Shown here one piece after another: positions 31,782-52,300 of a DNA stretch of 64,000 bases (position 1 is its first letter; each line of letters starts with the position of its first letter). Origin of the DNA: a virus (Duplodnaviria > Caudoviricetes); IMG/VR virus record IMGVR_UViG_2912838376_000002, positions 180,830 through 244,829 of that record. One strand, given 5' to 3'. The translations under genes and the position numbers were made by a program. The notes under the pieces were generated by a model. That model ran no database searches. It had not been told where the DNA came from and worked only from the letters and a program-made list of their open reading frames with translations.

Positions 31782-31787
31782 AAGCTA

Positions 31788-32424: not shown

Positions 32425-35400
32425 ATGGCTGATAAACGCTATACGGGTGAAGAGAAAGAGAAGAGTCATCTGCTTAGTAATATAGCAAAAACAGGTTCCC
32501 TTATCGGTGGAGGAGTAATGGCTTACCGTAACCGAGCAATGATAGGTAAAGCTATGTCTGATTTATCTAGTAATGCAGCGGTCACTGGAAGTAGGGTATT
32601 AAGTAAGGATGGACATGCATACAGTGCTTTATCCGATGCTAAAGTATTTATGAAAGGAATATCAGACGCTCTTGGTGACAACCCATCTGTTATTAGAACA
32701 TTACGTGGTGGGTTCGATAGTAATATACAGGAGAAAATGCATAAAAACTTCGAAGCTTCTGTCCGTAACAGTATCAAGAAGAGACAAATGCTTACGAATC
32801 GCCCAGGTCAAAATAATACAGAATTCGTTAGTCGTTACTATAAAGAATTCCACAAAAGAAACATGGGTGGTCTGAATAAGTTTGAATATGCTGCTACTCA
32901 ATCATTCCGTCAAAATAAAATCCTTGAAAACCTACGAAAACAATCCTCTATTAAAAACAATGGTGGGGACAAGATTCTTAATGCTCTTACCCATTACCAC
33001 AATCAAAATAAAGGTATTTTCAACAGTCCTGCTGATCACGTTGATGACTTCATAAAGCAACTTGAGGATGGGAAGTACGCTCATAAGGTTAAATTCCAAG
33101 ATGATTCACAACGAAATGCATTTCAGAAACAAATGCTTCAGACTCTTGAACAGTATAAAGATACTAAAAAAGTATTTGAAGGGAATAAAGGCTCAATCCT
33201 ATCTCAAGCGAAAGCGATGGAGACTGCTTCTGCTTATGGTTTCATTCAAGATGCACTCAAGCAAACTGATGTATTAAGTACTCAATTTAAGAAAAAAGGG
33301 TTTAATCATACTACGTTAAAAGATGCTGAGAAGTTTGACATAGCTACTAAACGTAAATATGGATTAATTGTTGATGATATTGATGAAAAAGGAAATGAAA
33401 AGTCTATTGATGTTACTAAGGAGTTAAGAAAATTCTTAGACAACAACAAGCATAATGACGATTTAAATGCACTGTTAGGTAAAAAGGGAATATCTTTTAA
33501 CTTTGAAGATATGATTCTTGATAAGAATTTATACACTCATGCAAAAACAGGTGAGATGATAGATAACCGACATTTAAAATCCGGTGCTGTTAGTGCAATA
33601 GATTCTTTCCAAGAAAGTGTTAAGGTTCCGTTCCTTAATATTAACCCGGTTGATTTAACACCTTGGCAAGCATTCCGTTCTGGTCAAGCAAAAGAGGGGC
33701 TTCAAGTATTAGGTGCTGGACAGGTTCATGGTTTTGTAAGGAACTTAGGCGAGCAATCTTTTGATGGGGTAGCTAAAGCAACTCAAGAAGGAGCTATCCG
33801 AAACCCTCTAAAGAATAGTGATCATTTCTATACTGGTGGAAATGTTTTTCGTTATACAGAAACAGGTGGGCTAGATTTAGTTGATGAAGGCCTGTACTTA
33901 GCTCCATCACAATTTGGTGCATTCTCACGTATGCATAAAAACATGACTAACTACAGTGAGAAAGATGTAATAGACGAACGCGGATGGGTTAAGAAACTAT
34001 TCGATGTTGGATATCAGGAAAATGAAAGCCGAGCAGAAACATACAGAAAAGCATGGGATAAGCTTGCAGATCCAATGTACGGACCAAATGCATTAAGAGG
34101 TTTAGTATATGATTTACATACCTCTAAAGAAAACCAGTCAGATATGATTCGTGATGTTTACAATGTAATGCGTGTTGGTATGGATAAGAGCGCAACAAGT
34201 CTTACTCGTGAAGCTACAGAAGTTCTTTCTCCTCACGTAAACAAGTTATTCGATCATATCAAAGTAAATGGAGAAGCCTTCGACTTTGCTAGATTAACTG
34301 ATGACGACTATGTAAAAGATGCAGCTCTTGTATTTAATAAAGAACTTAAAAATCAATCATCTAACATAGGAATGTACAAGTCTCATACTCGTTCTGTATA
34401 CAATGAAGACTTGTCAGGTAGGGATGCTTTAAAACATTATGAGGATCCATCTGTTAAAGAATTAGGAAGATGGACGCAGAAATACATCAATGACCCTGAA
34501 GGATTTAATTCCTCAAGGGAAGCAGCAGTCGATAAAAACCTACCATCTTTAATGGAATTTATGGTTCCTACATTTGGTGATGATGCAGCACTTATTCCTG
34601 CAACTGAAAAACTTCGACGTTCATTCCATCAATATGCTTTAAGGGCATTAGATAATGAAGCAGGAGACTTTGCTCCGGATGTCGTTAAAAATGGAGCAAG
34701 AAAAAGAAGTTCTCTTGCGTATTTAATCGATGCAAGAAACAAAGGTATTCTATCTGAATCAGATGTAAAGAATGCGAAGGACTTAGAAACATTAACTGAC
34801 ATTTTAGGTTATGACAATATCCACAATATTGATGCAAGACCTCGTGAAGCGAAGACATTCCTTGAGGATGTAATGAACATCCATAAAGGCGATGTTGGTT
34901 ATGACGATACTAAGCTAATGTTTGAAAGCGGCGGAGTTAGTCTAAATGGCTTTGGTCAAGACCTTCAAGAAGGTATTTTGCGTGCTCAACCTATTACAGG
35001 TAGGGCCCCAGAAGCAGGAAAACCTTCTCCTAACGGTGCAGACTTCATCATCATGCGTAAAAGTGGATTAGGTAAAGCTGGTAAGGAAATCGTATCAGAG
35101 TTAAACATAAACAACCTAAAAAATTATGGTCCAATTGATGATGGTTGGGATCTTGCGATTAATACAGAAATGTATGCAAGAAACGCTTCCTCAACATTAG
35201 TTCAACAAGGTCTAGCAGTTTCAAAAGAGATGTTAGCAGGAAGACACATTAATGGAGATTCCTTAGAAAATGTAACTACTTCAACTGCTATTATGTACGG
35301 ATTAGCAGAGCGTCTAGATAACCAGTTAGGTAACTTCGGATTGAGTTTATCTCAGAAGAATCTAGGTTCTTTCCAAAGTATTATCGGCAATCAATACTTA

Positions 35401-38400
35401 CGTCGTATTGTTCTTCCATACGCAGCATACCAACAAGCTGTTTACTTTGATGGATTAACAGGAGATACGGTTAGTGATACAGCTGCAGATGCATACGTTA
35501 ATACTCATACAACTCTTCAAAGTATTAAAGAAGGACTTGGTATTAATAAGGCATTACGTCCTTGGGCAAATGTATTTAAAAATGCAGGTGCTGACCAAGT
35601 AGGAGAATGGCTGGGAGTTAAGCAATTAGACTTCTTAACATTTGGCATGTTTAGTGATTTCCGTAGCGGTGAAGACACTAGAGAGTATTATGAATCTGGT
35701 GAAGATGCAATCCGTAAAAATAGATACTGGGGAATCGGTTCTCCTTCTCCTTGGGCTGGTGGAGGAATCGACCACTTTGAAGCCAACTGGTATCGTAAAT
35801 TAAAGTCTGATTACAAATTTACAGACACTATGTATGGTAGTGAAAGTGAATATTGGGCGAATAACTGGATGCCTACCTTAACTCATCCGTTTGCTCCTAT
35901 TAAACACTTCTTAACAGACCCTTATCATTATGAAAATAAACATGAATTAGACAGACCATATGCAATCACTGGTGGTTTTAGTGAACTACAAAACATTCCT
36001 ATCGTAGGTAATCTTATTGATGGTACAGTTGGACGAATCCTAAAACCTCGTAAAGAACACAAGGGGTTAGAAAAAGCGCATGAAGAATACATTTCTTCTA
36101 TTAACCAATACATCCAAGATAAATACAGTCCAGTTAAGGATGGTTCTTATGTAGGTATTTCTGGAACAGGTGCAGTCACGCAGTACAATATGTATGCCGA
36201 TCAAGGGACAGGCGATTACTTTGGAGGTTCAGCAGCTAACTATGGTGCTGATGCTGGTATTGTTAACTACGGTAATGGAATTACACCTGCTTACAAAACA
36301 AACGTTGCTGGTGGTGGAATAGGAGGCCCTGTAGGTGATATAGGAGGCTCAGGTGGAACCGCAGTAGGTGGAAGTCTTATTGGTAGGGGCATGAGTGGTG
36401 CTACAAGAGCTCAAAACATTCTAGCTGAACAAAACTATGCACTTGCTCAAATGGGTGATGGTGTAGAAGCTGGAACAGTTAACAGCTTAATGAAACTTAG
36501 AAACATGGGGATCCCTCAGGATCTTGACAGTATTGGTCAACTTGATAATTTAACAGGTTTGCTTAAAGACGGATTCTACAGTGCATCCGAGTTAGGTGGT
36601 ATCTATGGTTTCTTAACAAAAACAGGAATTGGATATGAAGAGTCATGGCGTGGAACAACACTTGCTCCATCAACATTAATGACTTCTCCAAGTCGTGCTT
36701 TTTGGGATATGAACCTTGGTGGTGCCGGTGGTGCACTATCGGAGATTGGTCGTCGTTATGTTCCTCGTGACCCTAACAAAGATTATTATTCTCCAATTCG
36801 AAATACAATGCCTGAATGGTTGCCAGGTATAGACTCATCAACAGATTTCTTACATGGTGATCCATATACGAAAATACAGAAGGGTGAAATAAGGCTTCCT
36901 GGTAAAGCATATGAAACTCTTTACAAACTTCATCCGGACGGAACTGGTTCTGGTGAATTTGCAAACTATGGTGTGTTTGACCGATTCCGTATCTTAGCAG
37001 ATATCGATCCTGATAGTGAACAGTACAAAGTAGCTAAGCATCAAATCTCATTACTACGTCAATCTGGTGGTCTTACAGAAGATATGGCCAAAGAAGTTGA
37101 GGAGATTAAGCAACAGGTTCACGATAAACAGGACACATATCACTGGTACGATAAGAAGTTTTCAAATGCTGATATCCAAGAGAAGAATGTAACAATCTCT
37201 AAAGTTATCGATGCAAATACGTTCATGGTTCGAGAGTTCGATGCTCCAATTAAATTAGCTGGTATCAAATTAACACAAAAAGATAACCAAGATGTAATTG
37301 ATTGGATGGGACAGTATTTAAAAGTTGGTGCGAGAGTTAAGATTGGTATTGCCGATGATCCTGTTGCACGAATGAATAATGATACATATGGCTCAATGGA
37401 TGCTGTTGTGTACACGAACCAAAATGAAGAAGGTCGTTTCTGGTTTGAGACGAACAAAGGCCAGTCATTAAATGCTCTTATCGCAAACAGAACTTGGAAG
37501 AATCCAGTTCAGATTAAAGATGATGGCAGCCCAACTTCTACAAGAGCTCTTTATTCAAATGACATGGTAACTGTCGGTAAGTATACTGAAATGTTAACGC
37601 ATGATATTCTCCCTAAAATACCTTTCGTCGGAATCTTAGCTGATAAGTTCTTACAGGTACGTACACCGATTGAAAGTTATAAGAGAGATCAAGTATATGG
37701 TTCAGACTGGAGACCTTGGACACAGCCATATGAAGGCTGGATTAAACCAATGGTAAATACGGTTGCTTCTCAAAACCCACTTATTGCAGGTGCAGAAATG
37801 GCAGCCATTGGTCACCTTTGGGGAAAGACAACAAAAGCTAAAGGTTTAGGACGTGTCGCTGGATTTGCTATCGGTGCCGGACTTTCTACTCTTCGTGTAC
37901 TAGATGAAGGAGCAGGAAGAATTCTTCCGGGCTTAGACAACGTTTGGATTCCACAAGAACGTGAAGACGAACGAGAAATCAATCAGTACTTTGACCGTTT
38001 AAAATACGTTAAGTATCGTGGTCTTTACGAGAAAGCTAGCCAACTTGCTAAAAGTGAAGAGGGCGTAGATGTAGAAGAATTCTTTGATGCTGCAGCAGAA
38101 AAAGGGCGAAAAAACAAAGGCTTAAAACGTTACCTAACAGACAAGAAGAAAACATTGTCGTGGGCTAAAAAAATGGGTTATGGTGACACCGAAGCCGTTA
38201 AATCACAAATCCATGAACTCTCTGGCGAAATAGAAGATATTTCGTCTGCAAAAGAAGCCTATCAAGCAGGTAAGTACACATCTTTAGCTATTAAGTATCG
38301 ACAAGAATATGAAGGTACTCTGTATAGTATGGGTGAAACTGGAGCCTCTGATAGAACATCGTTAATGAGAGCCTTAACACCAAAAGAGCGAGAATACATT

Positions 38401-38907
38401 CCACGATTCCTTGAGACGACTAGCAGTAAAGAGCGTCAAGAGATTCTAAAGTATGTTCCTGAGGACATTAAGAGAATCTTACAAGGTAGCTGGGGACTTA
38501 AAGTAGATAAGCAAGAAGACATTGAAGATTACTTTGATAGTCATTATCTGCCGAGTGAAAATTGGTCCGGATGGAACGCAAGTACAAATCTTGATGATAT
38601 AAAAATCAAGGTTATGAAAAAGCAAGGTGTAAATCCAACTACTTCTGGTTATTGGAGTAAAGACCAAGCTAGAGCGGAGAAGTCAGGAGAAAAAGCAATA
38701 CCAATACACTCTTTAAGTAGTTTGATCGATACAGGTCGCTTGCGTGAGGTGTTATCAGGAATGGGATTATCAGATGTAGATGTCCAATTAACAACTTCTT
38801 ATGGAGAGGGACCAGGTGGAATCAATACTTCCATCGACATCATGAAAGATATGCGAAATGAAATTTTAGATGGTCTTAATGCAGGAGTACATTCCTCATT
38901 ATTCTAG
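32425..38907 (+). CDS. tape-measure-like giant tail protein with a degenerate SNase-like domain
   Basis: First giant ORF after the chaperones; helical with Gly-rich and hydrophobic segments; ISKVIDANTF...IKLAGI...DTYGS SNase-like fold at ~37180-37490. Confidence 0.6.
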   Translation: MADKRYTGEEKEKSHLLSNIAKTGSLIGGGVMAYRNRAMIGKAMSDLSSNAAVTGSRVLSKDGHAYSALSDAKVFMKGISDALGDNPSVIRTLRGGFDSNIQEKMHKNFEASVRNSIKKRQMLTNRPGQNNTEFVSRYYKEFHKRNMGGLNKFEYAATQSFRQNKILENLRKQSSIKNNGGDKILNALTHYHNQNKGIFNSPADHVDDFIKQLEDGKYAHKVKFQDDSQRNAFQKQMLQTLEQYKDTKKVFEGNKGSILSQAKAMETASAYGFIQDALKQTDVLSTQFKKKGFNHTTLKDAEKFDIATKRKYGLIVDDIDEKGNEKSIDVTKELRKFLDNNKHNDDLNALLGKKGISFNFEDMILDKNLYTHAKTGEMIDNRHLKSGAVSAIDSFQESVKVPFLNINPVDLTPWQAFRSGQAKEGLQVLGAGQVHGFVRNLGEQSFDGVAKATQEGAIRNPLKNSDHFYTGGNVFRYTETGGLDLVDEGLYLAPSQFGAFSRMHKNMTNYSEKDVIDERGWVKKLFDVGYQENESRAETYRKAWDKLADPMYGPNALRGLVYDLHTSKENQSDMIRDVYNVMRVGMDKSATSLTREATEVLSPHVNKLFDHIKVNGEAFDFARLTDDDYVKDAALVFNKELKNQSSNIGMYKSHTRSVYNEDLSGRDALKHYEDPSVKELGRWTQKYINDPEGFNSSREAAVDKNLPSLMEFMVPTFGDDAALIPATEKLRRSFHQYALRALDNEAGDFAPDVVKNGARKRSSLAYLIDARNKGILSESDVKNAKDLETLTDILGYDNIHNIDARPREAKTFLEDVMNIHKGDVGYDDTKLMFESGGVSLNGFGQDLQEGILRAQPITGRAPEAGKPSPNGADFIIMRKSGLGKAGKEIVSELNINNLKNYGPIDDGWDLAINTEMYARNASSTLVQQGLAVSKEMLAGRHINGDSLENVTTSTAIMYGLAERLDNQLGNFGLSLSQKNLGSFQSIIGNQYLRRIVLPYAAYQQAVYFDGLTGDTVSDTAADAYVNTHTTLQSIKEGLGINKALRPWANVFKNAGADQVGEWLGVKQLDFLTFGMFSDFRSGEDTREYYESGEDAIRKNRYWGIGSPSPWAGGGIDHFEANWYRKLKSDYKFTDTMYGSESEYWANNWMPTLTHPFAPIKHFLTDPYHYENKHELDRPYAITGGFSELQNIPIVGNLIDGTVGRILKPRKEHKGLEKAHEEYISSINQYIQDKYSPVKDGSYVGISGTGAVTQYNMYADQGTGDYFGGSAANYGADAGIVNYGNGITPAYKTNVAGGGIGGPVGDIGGSGGTAVGGSLIGRGMSGATRAQNILAEQNYALAQMGDGVEAGTVNSLMKLRNMGIPQDLDSIGQLDNLTGLLKDGFYSASELGGIYGFLTKTGIGYEESWRGTTLAPSTLMTSPSRAFWDMNLGGAGGALSEIGRRYVPRDPNKDYYSPIRNTMPEWLPGIDSSTDFLHGDPYTKIQKGEIRLPGKAYETLYKLHPDGTGSGEFANYGVFDRFRILADIDPDSEQYKVAKHQISLLRQSGGLTEDMAKEVEEIKQQVHDKQDTYHWYDKKFSNADIQEKNVTISKVIDANTFMVREFDAPIKLAGIKLTQKDNQDVIDWMGQYLKVGARVKIGIADDPVARMNNDTYGSMDAVVYTNQNEEGRFWFETNKGQSLNALIANRTWKNPVQIKDDGSPTSTRALYSNDMVTVGKYTEMLTHDILPKIPFVGILADKFLQVRTPIESYKRDQVYGSDWRPWTQPYEGWIKPMVNTVASQNPLIAGAEMAAIGHLWGKTTKAKGLGRVAGFAIGAGLSTLRVLDEGAGRILPGLDNVWIPQEREDEREINQYFDRLKYVKYRGLYEKASQLAKSEEGVDVEEFFDAAAEKGRKNKGLKRYLTDKKKTLSWAKKMGYGDTEAVKSQIHELSGEIEDISSAKEAYQAGKYTSLAIKYRQEYEGTLYSMGETGASDRTSLMRALTPKEREYIPRFLETTSSKERQEILKYVPEDIKRILQGSWGLKVDKQEDIEDYFDSHYLPSENWSGWNASTNLDDIKIKVMKKQGVNPTTSGYWSKDQARAEKSGEKAIPIHSLSSLIDTGRLREVLSGMGLSDVDVQLTTSYGEGPGGINTSIDIMKDMRNEILDGLNAGVHSSLF

Positions 38908-38967: not shown

Positions 38968-41900
38968 ATGGAAGGAATCGAAAGAGTACCTATAAAAAAC
39001 AGGGCATTAACACCTGCTTATGAATCTGCTGATGGTTCAAGCAAGATCAAACTGGAGAACGCAGCAGAACGTACAGCTGCTGAATATAGACAAAGCGCAA
39101 TAGCTCAAACATATAACGAATTAACAAAAGACAATCGTATTAGTTCATTAGGCATTTGGGAGTCAGCTCGTACTCCAAATAGTTTTAATGTTAATGCTCA
39201 ACAAGCATTGAATCCTTTTATGAATTTAAAAGGTAACGACAACGTATTGTTCTTTGATATAGAAGCAATCGGTACACCTGAACACATGAGAAGTAATAAA
39301 GGTCTAGATCTATTTGCTATGACTGAGTTATCTTTTGGTGGAACTAAGTTTAACGGGAAAGACTTTGTTAAAAATAAAGGTTCTATCGTATCGATGGCAG
39401 TTGCTCCAGGAAAAGATGAATATGCTCGATTAAAGCAACAAATCAATAGATTAAAACAAAATCCGATGATGGCAGTTTCACAGGATATGCACCGTACATT
39501 ATTAGACTTAGCTAAGTACTCTGATGCAAATAAATTCAAGAGTGCTACAAGTAACGGTAAAGCTTATATGTCATTATTAGGGCATTCTCGTGTCCCTTCT
39601 GCAGGTACAGCTTTTACAAGAAATACAATAGACGAAATCGAGAGAGGTCTTAACAACCTTTACCACAAAGGAACAAAGGTTGAAGATGCACTATCTATTT
39701 TCCAGAATCATATCAAATCTACGAATTCAAAGTTAGGTGGATACAACATTCATCACTATGACTTACCAGCTATTATTGGTGCTGCAGGAAATAAAAGTAC
39801 AAAAGAATTCTTTAGAAGTGTGGCAAAGGATTCATTAGATTTTTATCACGGATATTCTGCTACTGCTAAAGATCCTTATTCATTAACAGGTTCAAGTTTA
39901 CGCCAAGAACATATCCACCAATCTTTATTAAGCAAGAAAAAGATTAAAGCTAATCAATCTTCTTATTTATATCACTTAGCAAAAGACGATATCCAAGCGA
40001 ATATTGAAATTGCAGGATTCACCCACAATAAAATCAAATCATTCATTCAAGAAGCGAAGAAATCTCCAGCTTACGCCCTTAACCCTTCTACATTAAAAAC
40101 AGAAATCCTAAAAGCAGGACAAGACGTATTCTCTTATCAAAGTGGTTATTTTGACAAAGAGAAGCACAAGTACAATCTTGTAGGAACGGTTGATGGAGAT
40201 GGAAAGATGAGTCCTCGATGGGCAAACTTAAATACATCTCTTCCTTCAAATGAAAATTTTACAATTAAAGAATTCTTACAAGACGTAGCACTACCAGGAA
40301 CAAAGAAGAAAGGATTCGGTGCAAGACTTGATTCTAAAGATATAAAGGGTAAAAGCATCTTATTAATGTCTGAAACTCAAGAAGGACTAGCACAACAAAT
40401 TCATGGTTCTTTCATGCCAATGGATGATGCAATTTCTAAAAGCCTGCGTGACTTAAAAGTAAAACATGACGCTTCCTTCCGTGAATATGAAAGAATGTTC
40501 GATAATAACGGATGGAAGAAGATGAATGAATACTACAACTATCTAGATAAAGCAGGTAGTGTAGGAGAAGGTTTTGACTGGAAATCACACGTTGTTAAAA
40601 ATGGAGGAACAGAAGAACTAGCTATGAAGTTCCCTCATATGGTCGCACGACTAGAAGGGGAAAGAGATGTATGGGGAACAGCTATGAGTACTCTAAAAGC
40701 TTCAGGATTAAGCGACGAACAGAAATCAATTGCTCTTCGACACATTAAAAACAAGTTAGATGAACAAGGTGATAACAAAGCTCATGTAACTGCTAAAGGA
40801 AATAGATTTTTCGATTTTGCTTTCGGAGAAGAAGATAAAACAATTTTCAATGCAAAAGATACGAACTCAATCAAAGGTTCTTTCCGTTCTTACATTAATG
40901 GAAGAAGAAGAGGAGATCGTATTGGAAATCCTGAGAAGTCATATAAGATGGCTCGTATTGATGAATTACAGGATATTATCATTAACAACTTCAAACTTTC
41001 ACCAGAAGGTAAAGCTTCTAACGATGTGAAATATCTTATCGGTCAGATGAAGCAGGAAGTTATGTCGGGTAATAAAATCGAAACAGCTCTTACTGAAATG
41101 TCTAATCTTGTTCGTGACAAGGTAGAAAATATGGGTACAGATAATTTCGTTCGTGAAGTAACTAATCAAATGACGGACAACCGAACAACTGCAATCAAAG
41201 GACTAATGAAGAACCTACCAGATGTTATGCATGAAAGCATTGAGAACGCTCGTTCATACAAAAATGCTAAAGACATATTAAATGGTAATAGCCCACTAAA
41301 AGGATTTTTAAGAGAGCAGGATAGTCGCATCAAGAGATTATTTGAGAAGAACTTCGGCACACATGGAATGAACGATGCAGACACAATTAGTAAAGCAAGT
41401 GGTATGGCTGCTAAGTATGAGGATCTTGTTGGTAAGATTTTATCGTCTTACAGCAACGACTTTAATACTCAAATTCGATTCATGGATGGCGGAAACCCAT
41501 TGCTTATCTTAGCTGATAAAAAGAGCGGTATGGACTTAAGTGAAGTAAAGACATATGAAGAACTAGTTCGTAACCCTAGATTAGCGACTATTGAACTTCC
41601 ATCCTTCGATAAAGACATGAAGGTGAAATACGGTGGAAACCGAAAAGCTTCTGTTATTCGCTCTGGTATTGGTGCAAAAGGAGCTTATCATAGTACATCA
41701 GTTACAGATGCTCTAAATATGATTCTTGATTATTCTAAGAAAGCAAAAGAGTTAGCTGAAATTGCTGAGGGTACTGGAAATAAGAATGCATTTGTTCAAA
41801 TCAGACAAGGACTTCGTTATCGCGTTGGAAGACAAGTAGACCCTGTTCCTACTGATGCAAGTCGAAAGCTACATTTCGATGATAAAGAAATGTTTGATAT

Positions 41901-44900
41901 TAAATCAGCTATTAGTGGTGAGGTTCGTTCAAGTAAATGGGATATCACAGGCTATGCAGAAGCTTGGTATAAAGCAAATCAAAAAAGATTAGGTTTGAAC
42001 ACCTCTGCTGATGTTATTGCTCAAAATGCAAAAGAAAAAGGAATCACATTCTTTGAAGCAATGGGACAAAGAGCAAAAGGTTACGCTACTGCCGGAGGAC
42101 TTCTTGATTTCGCAAATGGTACTTCTGGATTAAAAGGAAGTATGTTTGGTATCAATAACCGTTCTGCTTCAAAAGGTTTTGTTGGTACTGCAAATACAGA
42201 TGCTCGTACTTATATGGCATTAGGTAATTATTATGCTGATTCAGTAGAGAACCCACATAAGACAATCAACTACCGAAAAGTAGACCAAGAAGTTGCGTCA
42301 AGAGTATTACGTGGATCTGGTAAAGACCAATCGTTCCGTACAAAAAACAGCTTTATTTCATCTGCTGCATTTAAAGCACTTGATGATGCAAATGAAGTCC
42401 GCGGTATCACAATGCAAACAGGTTATATGACGGATGAAGAAATTGCATTAAAGCTAAAAGATGCTAACAAAATCAGTGAATACAAAAATATGATTGATAA
42501 AGCACAAGCTAAAAATCAAATCTCTCCTGTTGAAGCAAGACAGATGAAGAAGTCTTTAGATATGGGTATGCTTTCTACAAGTGAAGGTTTAGCATTCATG
42601 GACCACAGACTAATGAAAGCTTTTGATGGAATGGATGAAGTTCGTATTAATATGAACGCTGAGAAAGTAATGTTTAACAACTCCATTGAAACAGCCATTG
42701 AAAAAGAAGCAGAGAAACAAGGGCTTGGTAATGGTTTGTGGAAAGATAAAGGAATCACTTTTGACAAACCACTAGAAGTTGATATTAATTCAATGTTTAA
42801 TGAGAAAAATCATCTTACTCTTGGAAAATATGAAATTAACAATATCAAAAACGAGATTGTTGATGAAAAACGTTTTAAGAAAGGTGATAAGGTATCTATC
42901 CTTGGATTCAACGCAGATGACATTGATAAGAGATCACTTGTATTAGGTAGACAACGTAAAACAGGACATGGTTTTAAAGCCGTAACTGAAGGTGGTTTCC
43001 GTGCTACTATGACTCCTATGCTTGGAGAAATTATGAGTGATTTATATGGCGTAGAAGGAGTAGAACAAGTAATTTCTCATCTAGGAGAAAAGAAAGGTGC
43101 TATTGACCTACCTGCATTAATTCGTGGTTACGATACTCAGATTCGTCAACAATTCGGCGGTACAGTTGAAAAGAAAATCACCGGTTATGGTTCAGAAGAT
43201 AAAGCATTGTCTTCATTCTACAAAGACGTTGAGCAAATGCTTGGTATTGAAACTACTAACCAAAATGGTCAATACGTTGTAGATTCCAACTTTGGTTTAG
43301 ACGGAAAACAGTTGGATCAAAAAGGCCGTGAAAAACTTTCAGCTAAGTGGATGAGTGAATTAGGACTAAATCGTGAAGTATTCGCCGATATTACAATGGC
43401 CCATGATGTTTGGAATCGTCAGGGTGGAATTGACCGCGGTAAGATAACTGTTAAAGAGATAGACATGTTAGATCGTTCTTACACTCGAACAGGTATATAT
43501 AAACCAGGAGAATCTTCTGCACATGCTAACTTCATGCGTGATATGGTTTATGGTTCTCAAACTTCACCAGAAATTAAAGCACAACAAAAAGTGTTTAATG
43601 AAATGGTTAAAGTTGCTGGTAACTATGATAGCGGTTGGACCCCTAAGGCAGGGGATGTAGTTATTGATTACACTTCTGATGGTATGGGAGTAATGACTGA
43701 TGTAAATGCACAGATGAAAGATGGAGTACTTCATGTAAGTAAGGATTCGTTCGAAGCAATTCCTCAAAAGTCTGGTCATAGTCAAACATTCACTGTTGGT
43801 GACTACAATAAAACCATCATTAATGCCGGAGCAACTGAGTTTAATCTAGAGTCTGGTGGCAAAGGTAAGAAGATTCAAGAACACTTACTTAGCACAAAAG
43901 GAACAGCGTACTTAAAACTTCCGGAGTTCGCAGCGAACCAACACATTCCTCTTCTTGACATCAATTCAATGAAGCTACCTGGTGATGTTAACTATGTTGA
44001 GAAAACAGAGTTCCTTGATACATTAAAAGGTCACTATGCTTCTATTGCGAGAAAAACAGAAGAATATAATGGTTTATTTACAACAGATAAGTTCTCTGCA
44101 GAAGATGTAGCTAAACGACGTGGAGTTCTAGAAACAGAAATAAACAGAGAGATAGCTAATCTTACTACAACTCTTGGTGATTCAACTTCAAAAGAAGGTA
44201 TGGCTAAGATCATGGCAAGAAGACTTCCAATGTCTTCTCAATACCAATTCGGAGGCGTTAACCCTGCTCTAGCTTATCAGAAAGAGGGCGAAAAGTGGGT
44301 AAACAACGGTATCGCTAAAGAAGGCGAAGTTTACATGAACGAGAAAGATGTTCGTAATTTAATTGGAGACAAAGCTGAAAACATTGCGAAATCTTGGGGT
44401 ACAGATACAACGAAAATCAAACCAGAGGACATGACAGAGTATGTTATGAAAAACTGGAACAAAAACGATGTATTCTCAACTACTATTCGTTATCCATCGA
44501 TTGACGTTGGTACGACTCAAGCTCTTAAACTGAAAATCAGTGATGCTGTTGGTGAAGGGCAAGTAGTCGGATTACGTGGTATGGCTGAACGTATTTCTGG
44601 TGACTTCGATGGAGATAACTTGGCGGTATTCTTGACTCATTATGGAATAGATGATGAGAAACAACGAAGTGCGGTATTGAATGATATCACTAAGCTACAT
44701 AATTCTGATAAAGCGAAGAACCAATTAGCTGCTGATGTAATCATGAATAGTATGGAAAAAGACTTCCGTACAAGCGTATCAAGTGCTACTGGTTTAGATG
44801 CAACTCATAAAGATGTAATCGCTGCTTCTGAAGCGTTCTTCTCAGGGAATAGTACTAAAAATCTTACTCTCGGAAATCTACATGGCGCTGAAGCACATGA

Positions 44901-46239
44901 AAAAATCCGTGAATCACTTCAAAGTACAGGCGTGTACGATGATTGGGGAACAGTTAAGAATGGTGAATTCGGACTAGGTAAAGCTGAACACGAGAAATCA
45001 ATCTTAGCTCGTGCAACTTCTTCTACAATTGGTAGCGTAGATAATACACGTATGAGAATGTCTGCAGCGTTTATGACGATGGCGGAAACAAAATACAAGC
45101 TATTTAATGAAGCAGAAGGAGCAATGAAATACTCTAGGGACGATTATGTGCGAGAAACTGCAATGGTGGATGAGTTCCTTCGTGAGTACTCTCAGAAGTC
45201 TATCTCGGCTAAGAAAGTAGAAGGTTCAAAGCAAACTGCAGAAGAAGTAATGGGCGACCTTTACAGCATGATCGATAAAATCAATAATCCTAGCAACGGA
45301 TTGGATTATGATTTAGCTGCAGCTGACCTAGTTGAGCGTGGTCTATTTAAGAGCAAGCCATTCCTAGAAGTAGGAAAAGGTGAAGTTTACAAAGGATCAA
45401 ATCAGGAATTCATTAAGAAATCTCTTCAAATCTTAGGTGGAGCAGAAGAAGTTTACAGTGAAATGGGTGTTCAAGGATACCGACAATCAAGTTTACTTGT
45501 AGCTGCTTCTCAAGGTATTGGATTCCATAACTTCTCCAACATGGTTAAAACAGGTGAGCACATCCCTGGTATGGATGCTGTAACTGAAATCTCTAACATT
45601 GCAAAAGAGTATGGCAATGCAAGAATGGCTAAACACCAGGAATTCTTCGAAAAATCTGTTCAGCGAATTCATGAGCGTAGATACGCAAACATTGAAGATC
45701 GTTTAGATGATGCAGTTAGTTCTGTTGAAATCATGGGAGAAAGAAAAGCTGTTGAACCAAAAATCATGTCAAATGAAGCAATGCCGCTTCATCGTACAAT
45801 GAGAGATGAAATGAATGAGTCTCTTTCAGATATTGCAACTGCTGGTAAGAAAGCATTTAGTGGAAGCGCAGCAAGTTTTGCAGGGGTTGGACTTCTTGGG
45901 TTCGGTGCATTATGGGCAACAAATGCTCTAATGAAAGGCGCACCTACACCAGAAGGACTACAAGAAATGGCACCAGTATCACCAGAAACTTTAGGAGCTC
46001 CTACAGCGCGTGTAACACCTAACCAGAACGGTGAATATATCAATATATCTGTTAAGGCTTCAGCTGCTAAGAGAATGAATCATAATGATCTAGCAGCAAT
46101 GCTAAACAACGAAATCATGGCTATGTCGAATGTCAAAATGAGCACGAATGTGAACGTAAATGATAATTCGAGAAACATAGATAACAAGTGGTTAGAGGGC
46201 GCAGTTGCAAATGCAATGAATAAGGGTTATGCATATTAA
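38968..46239 (+). CDS. putative virion RNA polymerase (two-barrel, single chain) fused to an N-terminal DEDDh exonuclease
   Basis: FDIE (39253-39264), GYNIHHYD, HLAKDD (39973-39990) exonuclease motifs; ARRLPMS, IRYPSI (44485), GDFDGD (44599-44616) beta'-like motifs; located in the tail module. Confidence 0.75.
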   Translation: MEGIERVPIKNRALTPAYESADGSSKIKLENAAERTAAEYRQSAIAQTYNELTKDNRISSLGIWESARTPNSFNVNAQQALNPFMNLKGNDNVLFFDIEAIGTPEHMRSNKGLDLFAMTELSFGGTKFNGKDFVKNKGSIVSMAVAPGKDEYARLKQQINRLKQNPMMAVSQDMHRTLLDLAKYSDANKFKSATSNGKAYMSLLGHSRVPSAGTAFTRNTIDEIERGLNNLYHKGTKVEDALSIFQNHIKSTNSKLGGYNIHHYDLPAIIGAAGNKSTKEFFRSVAKDSLDFYHGYSATAKDPYSLTGSSLRQEHIHQSLLSKKKIKANQSSYLYHLAKDDIQANIEIAGFTHNKIKSFIQEAKKSPAYALNPSTLKTEILKAGQDVFSYQSGYFDKEKHKYNLVGTVDGDGKMSPRWANLNTSLPSNENFTIKEFLQDVALPGTKKKGFGARLDSKDIKGKSILLMSETQEGLAQQIHGSFMPMDDAISKSLRDLKVKHDASFREYERMFDNNGWKKMNEYYNYLDKAGSVGEGFDWKSHVVKNGGTEELAMKFPHMVARLEGERDVWGTAMSTLKASGLSDEQKSIALRHIKNKLDEQGDNKAHVTAKGNRFFDFAFGEEDKTIFNAKDTNSIKGSFRSYINGRRRGDRIGNPEKSYKMARIDELQDIIINNFKLSPEGKASNDVKYLIGQMKQEVMSGNKIETALTEMSNLVRDKVENMGTDNFVREVTNQMTDNRTTAIKGLMKNLPDVMHESIENARSYKNAKDILNGNSPLKGFLREQDSRIKRLFEKNFGTHGMNDADTISKASGMAAKYEDLVGKILSSYSNDFNTQIRFMDGGNPLLILADKKSGMDLSEVKTYEELVRNPRLATIELPSFDKDMKVKYGGNRKASVIRSGIGAKGAYHSTSVTDALNMILDYSKKAKELAEIAEGTGNKNAFVQIRQGLRYRVGRQVDPVPTDASRKLHFDDKEMFDIKSAISGEVRSSKWDITGYAEAWYKANQKRLGLNTSADVIAQNAKEKGITFFEAMGQRAKGYATAGGLLDFANGTSGLKGSMFGINNRSASKGFVGTANTDARTYMALGNYYADSVENPHKTINYRKVDQEVASRVLRGSGKDQSFRTKNSFISSAAFKALDDANEVRGITMQTGYMTDEEIALKLKDANKISEYKNMIDKAQAKNQISPVEARQMKKSLDMGMLSTSEGLAFMDHRLMKAFDGMDEVRINMNAEKVMFNNSIETAIEKEAEKQGLGNGLWKDKGITFDKPLEVDINSMFNEKNHLTLGKYEINNIKNEIVDEKRFKKGDKVSILGFNADDIDKRSLVLGRQRKTGHGFKAVTEGGFRATMTPMLGEIMSDLYGVEGVEQVISHLGEKKGAIDLPALIRGYDTQIRQQFGGTVEKKITGYGSEDKALSSFYKDVEQMLGIETTNQNGQYVVDSNFGLDGKQLDQKGREKLSAKWMSELGLNREVFADITMAHDVWNRQGGIDRGKITVKEIDMLDRSYTRTGIYKPGESSAHANFMRDMVYGSQTSPEIKAQQKVFNEMVKVAGNYDSGWTPKAGDVVIDYTSDGMGVMTDVNAQMKDGVLHVSKDSFEAIPQKSGHSQTFTVGDYNKTIINAGATEFNLESGGKGKKIQEHLLSTKGTAYLKLPEFAANQHIPLLDINSMKLPGDVNYVEKTEFLDTLKGHYASIARKTEEYNGLFTTDKFSAEDVAKRRGVLETEINREIANLTTTLGDSTSKEGMAKIMARRLPMSSQYQFGGVNPALAYQKEGEKWVNNGIAKEGEVYMNEKDVRNLIGDKAENIAKSWGTDTTKIKPEDMTEYVMKNWNKNDVFSTTIRYPSIDVGTTQALKLKISDAVGEGQVVGLRGMAERISGDFDGDNLAVFLTHYGIDDEKQRSAVLNDITKLHNSDKAKNQLAADVIMNSMEKDFRTSVSSATGLDATHKDVIAASEAFFSGNSTKNLTLGNLHGAEAHEKIRESLQSTGVYDDWGTVKNGEFGLGKAEHEKSILARATSSTIGSVDNTRMRMSAAFMTMAETKYKLFNEAEGAMKYSRDDYVRETAMVDEFLREYSQKSISAKKVEGSKQTAEEVMGDLYSMIDKINNPSNGLDYDLAAADLVERGLFKSKPFLEVGKGEVYKGSNQEFIKKSLQILGGAEEVYSEMGVQGYRQSSLLVAASQGIGFHNFSNMVKTGEHIPGMDAVTEISNIAKEYGNARMAKHQEFFEKSVQRIHERRYANIEDRLDDAVSSVEIMGERKAVEPKIMSNEAMPLHRTMRDEMNESLSDIATAGKKAFSGSAASFAGVGLLGFGALWATNALMKGAPTPEGLQEMAPVSPETLGAPTARVTPNQNGEYINISVKASAAKRMNHNDLAAMLNNEIMAMSNVKMSTNVNVNDNSRNIDNKWLEGAVANAMNKGYAY

Positions 46240-46280: not shown

Positions 46281-46305
46281 TACTACAACAAAAGAGGTGA
46301 CCGGA

Positions 46306-49300
46306 ATGAAAGAGAAAATATTAATTACCTCTCTAACTAGAGTTAGAAAAGATGCGCCTTGGCGTGTTGGTATATACATAAATCAGAACTACACGTTCAT
46401 TAATGTAGGGAGCAAAGGAAATGTGGCTACTAGCCCAAGATTTAATATGTTCCTTGCAGAAGTGGAAAAGAAAGTATCTCGCTACCCTGTAGATATTAGT
46501 TTTTATTCAATAGCGGATAATAGAGAGATGGAAGTCACTACGATGCGTAACCAAATCATCTATTTAGATTGTGGTTATAATTCTCACAGACTATTATCAA
46601 GTGCTAAATTTTACTACGAAAAAGAAGTACTTGGTAATCCATTAGAAATAGCGCAACAAAAACCAGAAGAAGAAAACAATGAATTCTTTAGTGTGATGGA
46701 AGAGCATAAAGAACAAGTTGAGACTTCGGATTACATTGCAATCGGAAGAGTAGAGAAAGTTACAGATGGTGATACAATTGATGTAAAATTGGTAAAGCTA
46801 TCTGACTTCTTATCTACTAAGTTAAATAAAGAACAAACAATTACAATTAGATATAACGGTGTAGACACACCAGAAACACTTCAACCTGGAGAAGAATCAT
46901 ACAAAGACCCTAAAAACACTAAGTTTGGGAAAACGTACGGTGTTACAATGCAAGACATGTATGAGGTAGGAGCAGAAGCACATACATATAACAAGGATCT
47001 CTTAGGTTGGAAAGACAACCAAAAGCCACTCGTGATTGTGCATTTTGACCGTAATAAACATGGAGAGGCACCTAAGCAAGACAATGGTTATGGTCGTTAC
47101 ATAGCAGATGTTTATGCAACGAATGAAAAAAGTGCTGATATTGTATTCGATAAGATCATTAACAAAAATGATAATAAATTTTTACACGTAAACAAATCTC
47201 TTTTAGTAACGAAATCTAAGAAGTTTCCTCAAGTCCCTCTTGGTCTTTTCCCATTTGAGCATGCAAATACTTTAACGGTTCTTAATCCTTTAAACTGGAT
47301 TGTTGAATTAGGATTAAAAGCATATGACACAGGTGCTGGTTCTCCTTCAACAGGTGCAAATGATGAAGAGAGTACTCCTGATATTGGTAGTGACGAACCC
47401 TACGATGAAGATATCAATCCTGAAACGACAAACATAAAAGGAACAACAACTCCTGCACACAACGCTTTAGACTTTTTTAGCCCTTATGATGATAGAGTGT
47501 CGATTTTTGCAGAAGGTATAACTTCAGTCGAAGATTTAAAAAGACATTCCAAAGTTAGGATTGGTGATGTAATTCTTACAATTCCACCTACTGCTATTGA
47601 TGTAAACAAAACTTCGAACATCTCCAAAATAAAAACACTTCGTACAAAATCCTCTGTATTAGTTAACCGCGGTCAAACACTTACTACGTTAAGCATGGAT
47701 CTTTATTTCCACGACTTAGAATCAATTAACGGTAAGAAATACCCTTGGAAGAAAGAATACGGAAAAGGAGAAGAAGCTAAGTATTTTTATGTGGATGGAC
47801 TTAGACCACTACTTGCACAATTCGCTAAAGCGCCGTTTCTTCCTATTGATAACTACTACATTAATGATGTGTTAGGCATTCGTGATGTAGCTTTAATGAA
47901 TATCGAAGTAACAACAGTCCCTAATTTTCCAGAGTCCTTAACTGCCAAATTAACGCTTATTGAATTTAATTCAGAAGCATACTTGATGGATAAAAGTACA
48001 CTCGGCGATTCTATAAACTATCCAATGCTAAGATGGTATTACAACCAATCCCTAGCACCTCGCGGAGATAAGTACCGTTACTTCAAAGGATTAGAAGGCC
48101 AGCTTAAAAGTGACATCAAATTTACCCTTGCTGATGAATCATTCCTTACAGCTCGAAGAGACGCTATTAATTACATGAAGAATGCAGATTCTCCAGAATT
48201 AAGAAAAATCGAATTAGAGACAAAGGATGAGGGGTACAAAAATAAAAAAGAAGATGCTTCTGTTGTTAAAGAAATCTTAGATCAATACGACCGTTATAAG
48301 GCTTCTAAACCTAATGAAAAAACAATTATTGATGATCTTCGAATGGGTTTTGGTGATACTAACTATTGGTACATGGTTAACGAACTCAAAAAGAATTACA
48401 AATTAAAAACGGAAGAAGCAGAAAATATTTTACGTGAAGGAGCAGAAATATTTTCTACGATTTATGATGGCAAATACAAAGGTTCGTTTGTTTCTCTTGT
48501 TAATCATGAAATCTTTATCCCATACCAGTCTCGCATGTACTTTAAGATTCGATTTGATTGGTCAGGTTTATCTGCTGGGCTTAATTATTATGATGAAGAT
48601 CCTCCGGTAGATTATTCAAAAGATCCATACAAGGGGAAAGAAACACAAGGTCTTATCATCTTAAAGAAACTTAAAGATGCAGGTAATCAAAAAATTCTTG
48701 AAAACAAATTCAAGAAGTATTATGAGAAAGAAAAATTCCGTATTCCTGCTAATGATGATGCAATAAAAACACTTAAAGAAATTGCAGGTAGCGCAAAGAA
48801 AATGGAAGATGAATTAGCTAAGTACAAAGATGAATTTGATGAGTATATGAGAGTTATTGAAGCTAGTGAGCGTATGATTCCAATGAGAGAGTACCCGATT
48901 TCTGGTAAGGTTATCCCAATCTCTATCAATGCTCGTTTCTCAAATGAGTTTAGCATATCTCATGTTCAGTCTAGTGAAGCTGCAACTCTACAATACATGG
49001 GTGGTGGAGATCCATACATTGATTTACTCTTGGAAGTAGATGAAGATGGTGCGAGGGATTTCAACAACCTTATTGCGACCTCTGACCAATACGCTAAGAA
49101 ATTTAATCAAGGTATTACAAATGGGTATATCGGTATTGAAAATGATCTTTCTCAATTATTTGGTATTCGATATGTAATGTTTGAAAGTATTTCTGTTAAT
49201 ACTGTTCCTAACTTCCCAGGAAGATACCAAATCATGTTACAAGGTATTGGGTTTGATAAAACACAGCGTCAACGTGAAGAACTAACTGCATTACCTGGTA

Positions 49301-52300
49301 ACAGTAAGCAAATGGATCTTGAGAAGTTGAAGATTAACAAGACAGCATTTATGAATGACCGCATGATAGAAGCTAGACTTCATAAGCTAGAAGTTTATCC
49401 GGACATGGAACTTCCTACTTACGCTCAAATTAATGCAGTATTACCAGAGCTGGATGCAGGTATAAAAGAATATCCGAACATAACAAATGGAACATATCTG
49501 GATCCAGATTTCTATTTCTCTACAGGTAACACATTAAGACAGTTAATTGAAGAGTCATACCTTGGGAACCATCAACTGAACATGTTTGATGCTACAGGTG
49601 TAGCTGCTTTCACAAGCAATCAGTCAGAAAAACTATTTGACACAACTGAAGAGGATTGGGCAAAGCTTAAGGAACTAGAAAAAACTGAAGGTGTAGGGCC
49701 TCTTGGCTGGAATTTTAGTTGGGGTAAACAGGAAGAGGCTAAGAAAGCCGACGCTCCAAATACATCAGCAGGAACTGTTATGGCTGACCAAGGCGGTGCT
49801 GCAACGGTAAAGAATGCAGACGTTCAAAAGTTTTTAACAGATAAAAAAGATGATAAATTTGCTTATGAAACTTTCCCGACTATGGAAGAATGGAAAACAC
49901 TCTTCCCTGATGGAGGAAATGATTATGGTACATTATCTCAAAAACCTAGTGGGGATGAAGCACTTATCTATCAAGAGCTTAATAGTCTAGTTGATAAGTA
50001 CTTTAAGAAATATTATTCAGCTCCTGATTTCATTGAAGAGTGTCGCGGGGATTTAAAAGAGGCGGACAAAACTAAAAAGGTAGTCTCTTATCAACCTGCG
50101 GAAGATATTTATTATGCAAGTTTCAAAGTAAGAAGAAGTAAGATGAGAGGCCCAGATACTACTGCGATTGGTGATTTAATCAAGAAAGAAGTCATTAAAG
50201 AGCCTAAAAAACCGAATGGTATGGATCATATGGACTTCGCTAAAACAGAATCAAAAATCACAAAAGAGAGATTCATGACACTTATGAAAGCATTCCTTGA
50301 TAAGACAAGTCAGTGGAAGCATTTTAAAGGGACAAAACCTAACGTTAGTAAGGCTGGACGTGTAGGGTTAGCGCAAGTAGATGTTTCTTCAGCTGATATA
50401 AAGGTTGATGAAGTAAAACGTTTAATGTACAACTGGAGATACAATTTACAAACAGCAGTTAAGCAACTTGCGGAACACTACGAGAAGCTAGATAAGTTAG
50501 ACAAGGATCGTGAGAACTATGAATCTTATTGTCGTCCTTGGGATGGAATGTTCGCTCTATATGAAAAGCCAGATGCTAAAATTAAATTTTCTAAGGATAT
50601 CGAAGATAATAGTTTTGCAAGCGGCGTTATGAACCGTTTCAACCATTATGCGACTAAGCCATTTAATACATTTAGTGGTTACAATAAGGATGTCTATAAA
50701 GGATATGCCGGATTAACTCTAGATGAGGGCATTACGATGGGTGATGGAAACAAAGATGACTATGTTGATCAACTCTTAGAGCTAGAATACTACGACTTAT
50801 CAGTATTAAAAGCGAATAATTTAAAAGTTGATTCTGATAAGAAAAATATCAAGAAGGTCATGAAAAAGCATCTAGAAACCCTGGATAAACAATCACTGTA
50901 CTCGATTTATGAGAAGCATTTAAAAATGCTATATGAATTAAGTAAGACAGATGGATGGGTTGAAAAAGGTATAGACTTTCTCGGGAAATACAATCCAGGT
51001 AACCTTGCTACGTTTGGTGCACTTGGAAAAGCCACCGATAAATTAACAGACAAATTCGCGGGTAGTAAAAAAGATAAGAATGGATACGAGTATTCACAAA
51101 AAATCTATGAAAAAGGTGCTAAACTTTACGAAACAATTCATGATGTTGATAAGACAGCTGTAGCCTCAACAGAATCAACAGACCTTCGTTTGTATAATGA
51201 TGTTGATCCACGAGTACTGTATGAGGAAATGTTCTACGACTTAAGATACCATGACCAACGCGGAAGAATGCTTCGTGCATTCCCAGGATTCCAGATGTTT
51301 ATTATCCATGAAGGTGATTACTTTGGTAAATATAAGTTTTGGGATAATATGTACGGTTTCAATGCTATTCAAAGTATAGACGTTCACCGTTCTCGTAAAA
51401 TTGCTGCAGATACTGCAGTAATCTCTATGACTAACGTATACTCAAACTTAACAACTCGTCGTACCGATGTTGACTACGTAGACCGTCAGTTAAAATGGTG
51501 GGATAACTATATCTGGAATGAAATTCCTCAGGATTTAATTGATAAAAAGGAAAACGAAATTCACAAGAACCTTTTCCTAGAAACAGGAGCACGTATTCAT
51601 TTAAGAATGGGTTATGGTGCTACAGCTAGTGCGTTACCAATTGTCTTTAATGGTACAATTTCAGAACTTGAGATTGGCGATGTAATTGAAATAGTTGCTC
51701 AAGGTGATGGGGTTGAATTAGGAAACGTAGTATCTGGTGACCCTGATGATAACAACGATGGAATCTTCAGTGTTACTGAACCACGAGATTTAATTTGTAG
51801 TCTTATGAGTTCAAAAGGAAGTTGGTCTAAAGACTTCATGAACGGCGTAGTAGATGAGCGATTATTTAAAGACAACCCTCTAGGAATCATGCATTTTGGA
51901 CAACCATTTGATTCAAAGGGGACAATTGATTCAAAACCTCTTGGTAATTTAATATGGTTCAACGATGAATATGGAGAAGTTGCTCAAAATATCTACTCTT
52001 CAAATGGTACTCCTACATTTTCGGAATGGTTGCACCCTAATGGAGAACGAAATAATATTTTCGAAGATTTTAGCTGGAAACGTCTATCGGAAAATAAGTT
52101 TAAAATCTTTAACCCAGGAGATGCAGACAATGTAGTTGTTAAATTCTACAACAACACAGTTTGGGATATTATACAAACGATTACCTATTCGACTCCGGAC
52201 TATATATCTGCTGTTCATCCGTTCGAATTACGATCAACATTATTCTTTGGTAAGCCATACTGGCGTTGTGCTTTTGAGTACGATTCTCGATATGAGTTTG

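Follow-up and report, generated by a model that had tools for sequence, protein, structure and literature searches.

RNA polymerases (RNAPs) delivered with the virion allow a phage to start its gene expression independently of the host. To our knowledge, few kinds have been characterised: those of N4, crAss-like phages (gp66), the phiKZ-type virion enzyme and gp96 of P23-45. Chaban et al. (2024; PMC10770324) describe P23-45 gp96 as a 5002-residue tape measure protein that is present in virions, carries an N-terminal two-barrel RNAP with a DFDGD loop, and transcribes the pre-early genes, including the gene of a second, non-virion polymerase; gp66 of phi14:2, a crAss-like phage, is presented there as another virion-delivered giant protein. 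Here we report on an open reading frame (ORF) of 2423 codons, hereafter the target, in the tail module of a jumbo myophage of Bacillaceae that resembles 0305phi8-36. It lies in a 64-kb window (64,000 nucleotides, positions 180,830 to 244,829) that forms the right-hand part of the 244,829-bp virus record IMGVR_UViG_2912838376_000002. An earlier reading of the DNA letters alone (the original prediction) had proposed that the target fuses an RNAP to an intact DEDDh 3'-5' exonuclease. Structure models support this combination, with polymerase activity predicted, in a gene that occupies the tape-measure position of the module.

Predicted RNA polymerase and exonuclease folds in one protein

We modelled the target with AlphaFold2 in two overlapping parts, residues 1-1100 and 1080-2250 (residue 1 of the second model is residue 1080 of the protein; feature coordinates are collected in Table 1). 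The second model reached a predicted local distance difference test score (pLDDT) of 80.3 and a predicted template modelling score (pTM) of 0.78. In a Foldseek search of the PDB with this model, 50/50 of the matches listed were RNAP entries and 43 matches had E <= 0.001, the best being the AR9 non-virion RNAP (7s00_d, E 3.3e-5), Thermus beta' and the phiKZ non-virion RNAP. Superposition of the Foldseek list with VIA-align placed model residues 1-410 on the beta/Rpb2 barrel region (Z 12.8-13.9, 254-306 residues aligned).

A VIA-align search independent of Foldseek, covering 48,161 chains, returned 40 chains with Z of at least 8, and ranks 1-19 were all two-barrel polymerases. For the beta-like module the top chains were the non-virion RNAPs of phiKZ (7ogp_C, Z 14.4) and AR9 (7s00_C, Z 14.1), and bacterial, plastid and eukaryotic beta/Rpb2 subunits scored Z 12.8-13.9. 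The beta'-like module (model residues 471-1132) aligned with Mycobacterium tuberculosis beta' (Z 11.9, 427 residues, model 471-1131) and with Pol II Rpb1 (Z 11.8, 511 residues). QDE-1 (Z 10.1) and P23-45 gp96 (Z 9.8) were further two-barrel matches. The designed double-psi barrel 7dww matched model residues 676-811, which correspond to protein residues 1755-1890 and span R-Y-P and DFDGD. A profile of the target family against the PDB aligned with phiKZ gp55 (E 4.7e-4) over R-x-P...DxDGD (HRNPT...NADFDGD).

The motifs listed in the original prediction were all located: SEGLAFMD (1205-1212, with [E/D]-G conserved at 1206-1207) and GFKAVTEGGFRA (1335-1346) in the beta-like module, and ARRLPMS (1750-1756), IRYPSI (1840-1845) and AERISGDFDGDNLAVF (1873-1888) in the beta'-like module. 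It had named the lack of a double-psi barrel pair around GDFDGD as the observation that would speak against a polymerase; in the model the loop lies inside a double-psi beta-barrel (~1755-1890), with another barrel in the beta-like module. According to Ruprich-Robert and Thuriaux, the residues invariant across two-barrel RNAPs are R-x-P, D-x-D-x-D and two basic residues eight positions apart (Rpb2 K979/K987). The target appears to hold counterparts of all of these with matching spacing: an R-x-P that precedes the D-x-D-x-D loop, and the invariant K1337 and R1345, 8 apart, which the model places in strands of the beta-like module. The acidic residue expected upstream of the basic pair in two-barrel RNAPs may be that of the conserved [E/D]1206-G1207. 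Further conserved positions, G2022/D2025/R2028 and S-Q-x-S-I-S-x-K (2075-2082), fall in long helices after the beta' barrel. Collectively, the models and motifs support a single-chain beta-like plus beta'-like two-barrel RNAP, for which catalytic activity is predicted.

The N-terminal model (pLDDT 83.9, pTM 0.68) contains a separate enzyme fold. With VIA-align, residues 85-365 superposed on complete DEDDh exonucleases with Z 12.3-14.2 over 167-191 residues (root-mean-square deviation, rmsd, 2.8-3.4), including ExoI (Z 14.2), Pol III epsilon (Z 13.8, 171/176 residues, rmsd 2.8), TREX1/2, RNase T, Orn, 3'hExo and a PolC-type exonuclease region. In the wide Foldseek-independent search with this model, DnaQ-type exonucleases or exonuclease-like folds made up 50/50 of the top rows, and the family profile matched DEDDh exonucleases in the PDB with E 0.0016-0.0075. 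All three motifs that the original prediction had called intact, FDIE, GYNIHHYD and HLAKDD, are present on this RNase-H-like fold, supplying the Exo I D-x-E, the Exo II D and the Exo III H-x4-D. The models thus support a DEDDh 3'-5' exonuclease fold with all five catalytic residues, combined with the two-barrel RNAP in one protein. The target has no Pfam match at E <= 0.1, RNase_T (PF00929) included, and is placed among the DEDDh enzymes on its fold and its catalytic residues only. The enzymes closest to it in structure act on single-stranded DNA, DNA primer ends or RNA and are tied within one Z unit, so that a DNA or an RNA substrate cannot be read from the matches.

Between the two enzymes lies a region of folded alpha/beta domains. 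Among the matches listed for model 1-1100 none fell outside residues 85-375, and an ESM Atlas search with residues 370-1080 gave no usable match.

In BFVD, the polymerase model matched several unannotated viral proteins: uncultured Siphoviridae sp. ctnpt50 contributed a "minor tail protein" (E 1.1e-18, TM score 0.43 over 1030 columns), Acinetobacter phage vB_AbaM_ME3 a pair of proteins (E 5.7e-9 and 9.6e-5) and Microcystis phage MaMV-DC a single protein (E 1.1e-7). Judging from these predicted structures, the ctnpt50, ME3 and MaMV-DC proteins may be unrecognised embedded RNAPs.

Sequence family and conservation

The residues expected to carry catalysis are retained in the aligned homologs. In a 14-sequence alignment reaching 19-25% identity, D97, E99, D265, H336, D341, K1337, R1345, R1841, P1843, D1879, D1881, G1882 and D1883 are invariant, as are several C-terminal residues. 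In a set of 21 sequences all keep D97, E99, N260, D265, H336 and D341, and D-x-D-G-D occurs in 26/26 full-length homologs (at least 2366 aa), with F, H, Y, W, N or V at its unconstrained second position. Because the catalytic residues stay invariant down to ~20% identity, the motifs exceed what chance would produce.

Relative to a 96%-identical homolog (dS 0.33), the ratio of nonsynonymous to synonymous substitution rates (dN/dS) was 0.044 overall and 0.03-0.055 by domain, with 0.031 in the middle region and 0.027 in the C-terminal tail. These sequence comparisons indicate that every domain is under purifying selection.

A word-indexed search found 19 relatives, mostly on contigs of 220-247 kb; the names of their sources suggest Gottfriedia, Priestia, Bacillus mycoides, Cytobacillus and B. 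subtilis. A related-locus search with the single target protein found 3 close relatives. Among 50,697 phage records, tblastn gave matches in 3 only, the cultured Bacillus phages KLEB27-3, WH1 and Edson (23-25% identity), and repeating the search with the WH1 homolog returned the same three. When the polymerase core was compared exhaustively by phmmer with 1.84 billion representatives, the search yielded 31 proteins, all of them members of the target family or fragments, with no known polymerase among them.

Some homologs depart from the full-length form. On a further viral contig (L007, near position 12835), a copy with 96% identity has a frameshift near codon 2015, in a CTTCTTC run, after which the protein goes on in a different frame; the sequence may contain an error here, or the copy may be broken. 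Two homologs, P0024 (1514 aa) and P0036 (1809 aa), start at the equivalents of residues ~950 and ~650 and hence have no exonuclease; they may be split genes, natural short forms or contig-truncated calls.

Position of the gene in the tail module

The window carries the head and tail module of a contractile-tailed phage, with terminase, portal, major head protein, two sheath paralogs and three tube paralogs. The genes run in the order sheath, three tube paralogs, chaperone pair, first giant gene, target and hub; 3' of the three giants follow an SLT/amidase gene, an M23 peptidase gene and baseplate genes. A strong AGGAGG Shine-Dalgarno sequence lies 7-8 nt 5' of the target ATG, and a terminator-like hairpin 3' of the gene. 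The two small genes at the chaperone position match phrog_29362 and phrog_29368, and their WH1 homologs are annotated as tail chaperonin. The hub giant matches phrog_20474 (E 1.5e-187); ATG 46306 is its likelier start than GTG 46297, because the Shine-Dalgarno sequence is better placed.

For phage 0305phi8-36, GenBank and Hardies (2007) give the order chaperonins orf143/144, orf145, orf146 ("hypothetical tape measure protein") and orf147 (hub), and according to the GenBank note gp146 was found in virions by mass spectrometry. With orthologs of orf145 and orf147 as the giants on its two sides, the target corresponds in position to the tape measure itself and does not merely adjoin it; like orf146, it lies immediately 5' of the hub gene and one gene away from the chaperone pair. 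The original prediction had set the gene between a tape-measure-like gene and the hub gene. The hub side of this placement holds, whereas the upstream giant is an orf145 homolog and the tape-measure slot belongs to the target itself. The synteny from chaperone pair to hub extends over four phages, this one, KLEB27-3, WH1 and 0305phi8-36, and the depositors annotated the KLEB27-3 and WH1 homologs of the target as structural or virion structural proteins.

The hydrophobic helix of the original prediction, FAGVGLLGFGALWA, occurs at residues 2304-2317, within the most hydrophobic 19-residue window of the protein (FAGVGLLGFGALWATNALM); its hydropathy is only moderate (mean Kyte-Doolittle 1.44), and its GAxxFGAxWAxSAL pattern is kept in the family consensus. 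A glycine-rich segment of such moderate hydrophobicity occurs once in each of the three giants, at a distance of 100-350 residues from the C-terminus; the segments begin at residues 1808, 2304 and 2324, respectively (mean Kyte-Doolittle 1.27-1.44). The original prediction had also described a tape-measure-like C-terminal tail. Instead of a long helical rod we found a short conserved tail, in which P2328, E2329, P2345-T-A-R2348, D2399 and N2400 are invariant in 26 sequences. Its last ~60 residues are the sole part of the target that aligns with 0305phi8-36 gp146, and weakly so (hhalign E 0.009, probability 4.5%); in agreement, Hardies (2007) notes conservation of orf146 among its relatives for the final 60 residues only.

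Two further nuclease-like features lie in the same module. The N-terminus of the hub giant contains a nuclease-like domain (phrog_452 endonuclease, aa 133-276), so the injection apparatus apparently carries a second nuclease, and a small HNH endonuclease gene sits within the baseplate gene block.

Table 1. Coordinates of the target, its predicted domains and catalytic motifs, and other features of the window (nucleotide positions in the 64,000-nucleotide window).
Feature	Position	Strand	Remarks
Second candidate two-barrel RNA polymerase, YonO/RNA-dependent RNA polymerase (RdRP)-like	3890..8077	-	1395 aa; GADHDGD aa 806-812; PF05183 E 4.4e-5, below curated cut-off
Two small genes, position of split tail-assembly chaperone pair (orf143/144 of 0305phi8-36)	31314..32410	+	downstream of three tube paralogs
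Upstream giant gene, ortholog of 0305phi8-36 gp145 virion protein	32425..38907	+	2160 aa; BLASTP 33% identity, E 5e-97
Target, exonuclease-RNA polymerase fusion (predicted)	38968..46239	+	2423 codons open, ~269 kDa, in tape-measure slot
DEDDh (DnaQ-like) 3'-5' exonuclease domain, aa 85-365	39220..40062	+	AlphaFold2, VIA-align, invariant residues
D97/E99 of Exo I (FDIE, aa 96-99)	39256-39264		
N260/D265 of Exo II (GYNIHHYD, aa 258-265)	39745-39762		
Exo III HLAKDD, aa 336-341 (H336/D341)	39973-39990		
Middle region, aa 366-1079	40063..42204	+	confidently folded alpha/beta domains; pLDDT mostly 80-95
Beta-like module, first double-psi barrel, aa 1080-1489	42205..43434	+	VIA-align Z 14.4 phiKZ, 14.1 AR9
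K1337 and R1345	42976-43002		in strands of beta-like module (model)
Beta'-like module, aa ~1550-2211	43615..45600	+	Foldseek, VIA-align, profile match to phiKZ gp55
R1841-x-P1843	44488-44496		beta' double-psi barrel
Metal-binding D1879-F-D-G-D1883	44602-44616		beta' double-psi barrel
Glycine-rich hydrophobic segment, aa 2304-2322, candidate membrane-inserting helix	45877..45933	+	hydropathy, consensus
Conserved C-terminal tail, aa 2323-2423	45934..46236	+	PTPEG...PTARV...NGE.INI...VNDN..ID..W; 26-sequence alignment
Downstream giant gene, baseplate hub, ortholog of 0305phi8-36 gp147	46297..53640	+	2447 aa; BLASTP E 2e-45
M23 peptidase gene	55751-57091		
Small HNH endonuclease gene	58040-58363	+	within baseplate gene block

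Comparison with described polymerases and exonucleases

P23-45 gp96 (PDB 8H2N/8H2M) and the target are both giant tail-module proteins in the tape-measure slot, with a single-chain two-barrel RNAP, a DFDGD loop and hydrophobic segments; P23-45 also encodes a second, non-virion two-barrel RNAP, for which the target phage has a candidate. The gp96 core and the modelled core of the target superpose over 286 residues (rmsd 4.0). As Chaban et al. describe it, gp96 belongs to a siphovirus, and after its N-terminal RNAP come the long body of the tape measure and a metallopeptidase domain. The target, in contrast, belongs to a contractile-tailed jumbo phage and places its RNAP in the C-terminal half, without a long ruler region or a peptidase, the M23 peptidase of this phage being a separate gene. 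Compared with the flat gp96, multisubunit beta/beta' is also the closer structural match to its model (Z 12-14).

The original prediction knew of no characterised virion RNAP with such a fusion. This holds for the exonuclease, which gp96 lacks, but a virion RNAP fused to a tape measure exists in gp96 (PMC10770324). The observation behind the original prediction was confirmed, and its interpretation partly supported. Literature searches found no report of a two-barrel or virion RNAP fused to a DEDDh exonuclease, and no paper on KLEB27-3 or vB_BceM_WH1. Chaban et al. do not list 0305phi8-36, WH1, KLEB27, ME3 or the Microcystis phages in their "Two RNAPs" table, a statement that applies to the table and not to the 23 family alignments of that paper. 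A tape-measure-slot virion polymerase is thus already known as a kind, from one phage group. The target family differs in its unrelated sequence, the beta/beta'-like structure, the jumbo myophage context, the other domain order and the DEDDh exonuclease.

The non-virion RNAPs of phiKZ and AR9 (7OGP, 7S00) are the best structural matches for both target modules and have the pattern R-x-P-[ST]-[IL]...Q...DxDGD in common with them. These enzymes and cellular beta/beta' are multisubunit and split over several chains, whereas the target presents beta and then beta' in one chain inside a tail protein, at 8-14% sequence identity to them. YonO, QDE-1 and phi14:2 gp66 are, like the target, single polypeptides with two barrels, but structural scores to QDE-1-type enzymes are lower than to the multisubunit type, and a whole-genome search with PF05183 (YonO/eukaryotic RdRP) matched the ORF at 3890-8077 only and not the target. 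We know of no single-chain two-barrel RNAP of the YonO, QDE-1 or gp66 type that carries an exonuclease.

With Escherichia coli ExoI, Pol III epsilon, TREX1/2, RNase T and oligoribonuclease the target has in common the complete fold and the pattern Exo I D-x-E, Exo II N-x4-D and Exo III H-x4-D. It differs from these enzymes by a ~160-residue insertion between Exo I and Exo II and by the fusion to a two-barrel polymerase.

0305phi8-36 gp146 (L004:22623-30236) occupies the same slot between orthologous neighbours, is of similar length (2537 versus 2423 aa) and resembles the target in its last ~60 residues. Unlike the target, it has no exonuclease motifs and no alignable body. On these alignments, one slot of the 0305phi8-36 lineage appears to hold two unrelated bodies of similar length.

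Second candidate polymerase and terminator-like hairpins

The YonO-like ORF opens the leftward, non-structural arm and adjoins the divergent region. Its catalytic loop aligns with 0305phi8-36 orf99 (E 0.002), and tblastn found no match to it among the 50,697 phage records. On its sequence features, this ORF probably encodes a second, non-virion two-barrel RNAP.

Intergenic 10-mers revealed only a conserved terminator hairpin. The genome carries 14 copies of this GC hairpin, with the core GGGGCGTTAGCCCC or its complement, two of them in the window at ~1226 and ~1301. Most are intergenic and in the leftward arm, and in most a T-run follows on the minus strand; the copies resemble intrinsic terminators whose tetraloop is fixed.

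Proposed role and alternative explanations

We consider it probable that the target is a virion-borne multi-domain ejection protein whose injected polymerase starts viral transcription, with the exonuclease working at a 3' end. From the N to the C terminus it would comprise the exonuclease, ~700 folded residues, the beta-like and beta'-like modules, the hydrophobic segment and a tail of ~100 residues. Like the C-termini of tape measures, the conserved C-terminus would attach the target to the hub or the tail tube. Upon sheath contraction the target would exit before the DNA, and its hydrophobic segment would engage the membrane. Independently of host RNAP, the polymerase would then transcribe the genes that enter first, as gp96 does in P23-45, and these genes might include that of the YonO-like polymerase. 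In a tape-measure-like arrangement the N-terminal exonuclease would be nearest the DNA end, where its substrate may be a free 3' end, whether that of the genome terminus or that of an RNA. We infer virion delivery, activity and the role of the exonuclease, drawing on the analogy with tape measures and with gp96.

Several observations weigh against this proposal, and they concern in part the assignment of the folds. Single-sequence searches gave the target no Pfam, PHROG or PDB (phmmer) match. When 14 family members were scanned against Pfam, RNA_pol_Rpb1_2 (E 0.015) and RNase_T (E 0.041) matched 1/14 each, both below significance. The AlphaFold2 models were built on shallow alignments (26 and 21 sequences), and no Foldseek match to the N-terminal model reached E <= 0.001; ExoI came first (1.2e-3), and Hsp70 chains were interspersed. 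The family profile produced no relevant hhalign alignment with gp96 residues 1-1200 (probability 0.85%) and none with the phage's own YonO-like ORF.

Other observations concern delivery and transcription. Presence in the virion is read from annotations of homologs 23-25% identical to the target. The two halves are both predicted to be large globular folds, which is hard to square with storage in a narrow tail lumen and with a ruler function. In KLEB27-3 and WH1 the fusion is present and no YonO-like gene was detected, and 0305phi8-36 has a YonO-like gene and a gp146 without polymerase motif; since the two do not co-occur in these three phages, a two-polymerase relay would not be general. A simple k-mer search revealed no phage-specific promoter motif, the 8-mers enriched upstream of 128 genes being A/T runs only.

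A second reading makes the protein a ruler as well: the target would be held extended and non-native in the contractile tail, refold at the membrane, let its exonuclease act on the 3' end of the genome terminus or of nascent RNA, and help to pull in the first kilobases by transcribing them. We regard this scenario as conceivable, though on balance doubtful. The extended, alpha-helical, low-complexity ruler typical of tape measures is not what the models predict, residues 1-2250 appearing as compact alpha/beta domains.

It is also possible, if unlikely, that the target is primarily structural, as a tape measure, a tail-lumen plug or a baseplate plug, with enzyme domains that are relics or assembly aids and no transcription after infection. 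The 0305phi8-36 tape-measure slot, the length close to that of gp146 and the common extreme C-terminus all suit such a role, and gp146 has no DxDxD motif despite filling the same slot. Two homolog clusters, P0007 (2083 aa) and P0009 (2082 aa), weigh on the same side and against an obligatory polymerase: internal deletions have removed the beta' barrel, GDFDGD has become GNFSRD, and the frame is intact, with ~80% identity to the target over residues 1-1747 and the C-terminus. P0009 represents 140 member sequences. Both variants may be copies that have decayed or been domesticated; since they stay in frame without the beta' barrel, the protein can persist lacking polymerase chemistry. A structural role, however, does not account for the invariance of five exonuclease residues, R-x-P, DxDGD and K/R down to ~20% identity, with DxDGD in every full-length homolog, nor for enzyme-domain dN/dS values as low as that of the C-terminal tail; compact globular domains (pTM 0.68-0.78) instead of an extended helical ruler were predicted.

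We give little credence to a PolD-like reading, in which the two-barrel module synthesises DNA or extends primers, perhaps repairing or filling genome ends on entry, while the exonuclease proofreads. A DnaQ-type exonuclease joined to a polymerase is the standard proofreading layout, Pol III epsilon, the PolC-type exonuclease region and ExoI are among the nearest N-terminal structures, and archaeal PolD is described as a two-barrel DNA polymerase with a separate exonuclease subunit (PMC4996933). The nearest polymerase structures are nevertheless RNAP beta/beta', with the 427-511 beta'/Rpb1 residues aligning beyond the barrel; no PolD chain was among the 50 VIA-align matches listed (Z of at least 7.7), and ~700 residues separate exonuclease from polymerase.

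Equally improbable is a late, active but unpackaged enzyme merely encoded inside the tail operon: size and globularity do speak against passage through the tail tube, but the chaperone pair-to-hub synteny is kept in four phages, depositors annotated the homologs as structural, the C-terminal tail is common to the virion protein gp146, and other giant polymerases are injected (P23-45 gp96, crAss-like and N4-related fusions; PMC10770324).

Implications for tape-measure-associated polymerases

If the proposed ejection role is correct, the tape-measure-fused type of RNAP would extend from a Thermus siphovirus group to Bacillaceae jumbo myophages, through an unrelated sequence family that escapes the present Pfam and PHROG models. 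The target would also be the first two-barrel RNAP physically coupled to a DEDDh exonuclease, a coupling that raises the question of whether an injected transcriptase must process a 3' end of DNA or RNA. For the 0305phi8-36 lineage, the question of which protein is the "tape measure" opens again: its slot holds either a motif-less protein or an enzyme fusion. Should the more doubtful scenario of a combined ruler and polymerase prove true, tape-measure-embedded polymerases would have arisen independently in contractile-tailed jumbo phages, and the look-alikes in ctnpt50, ME3 and MaMV-DC would hint at a much wider, unrecognised class.

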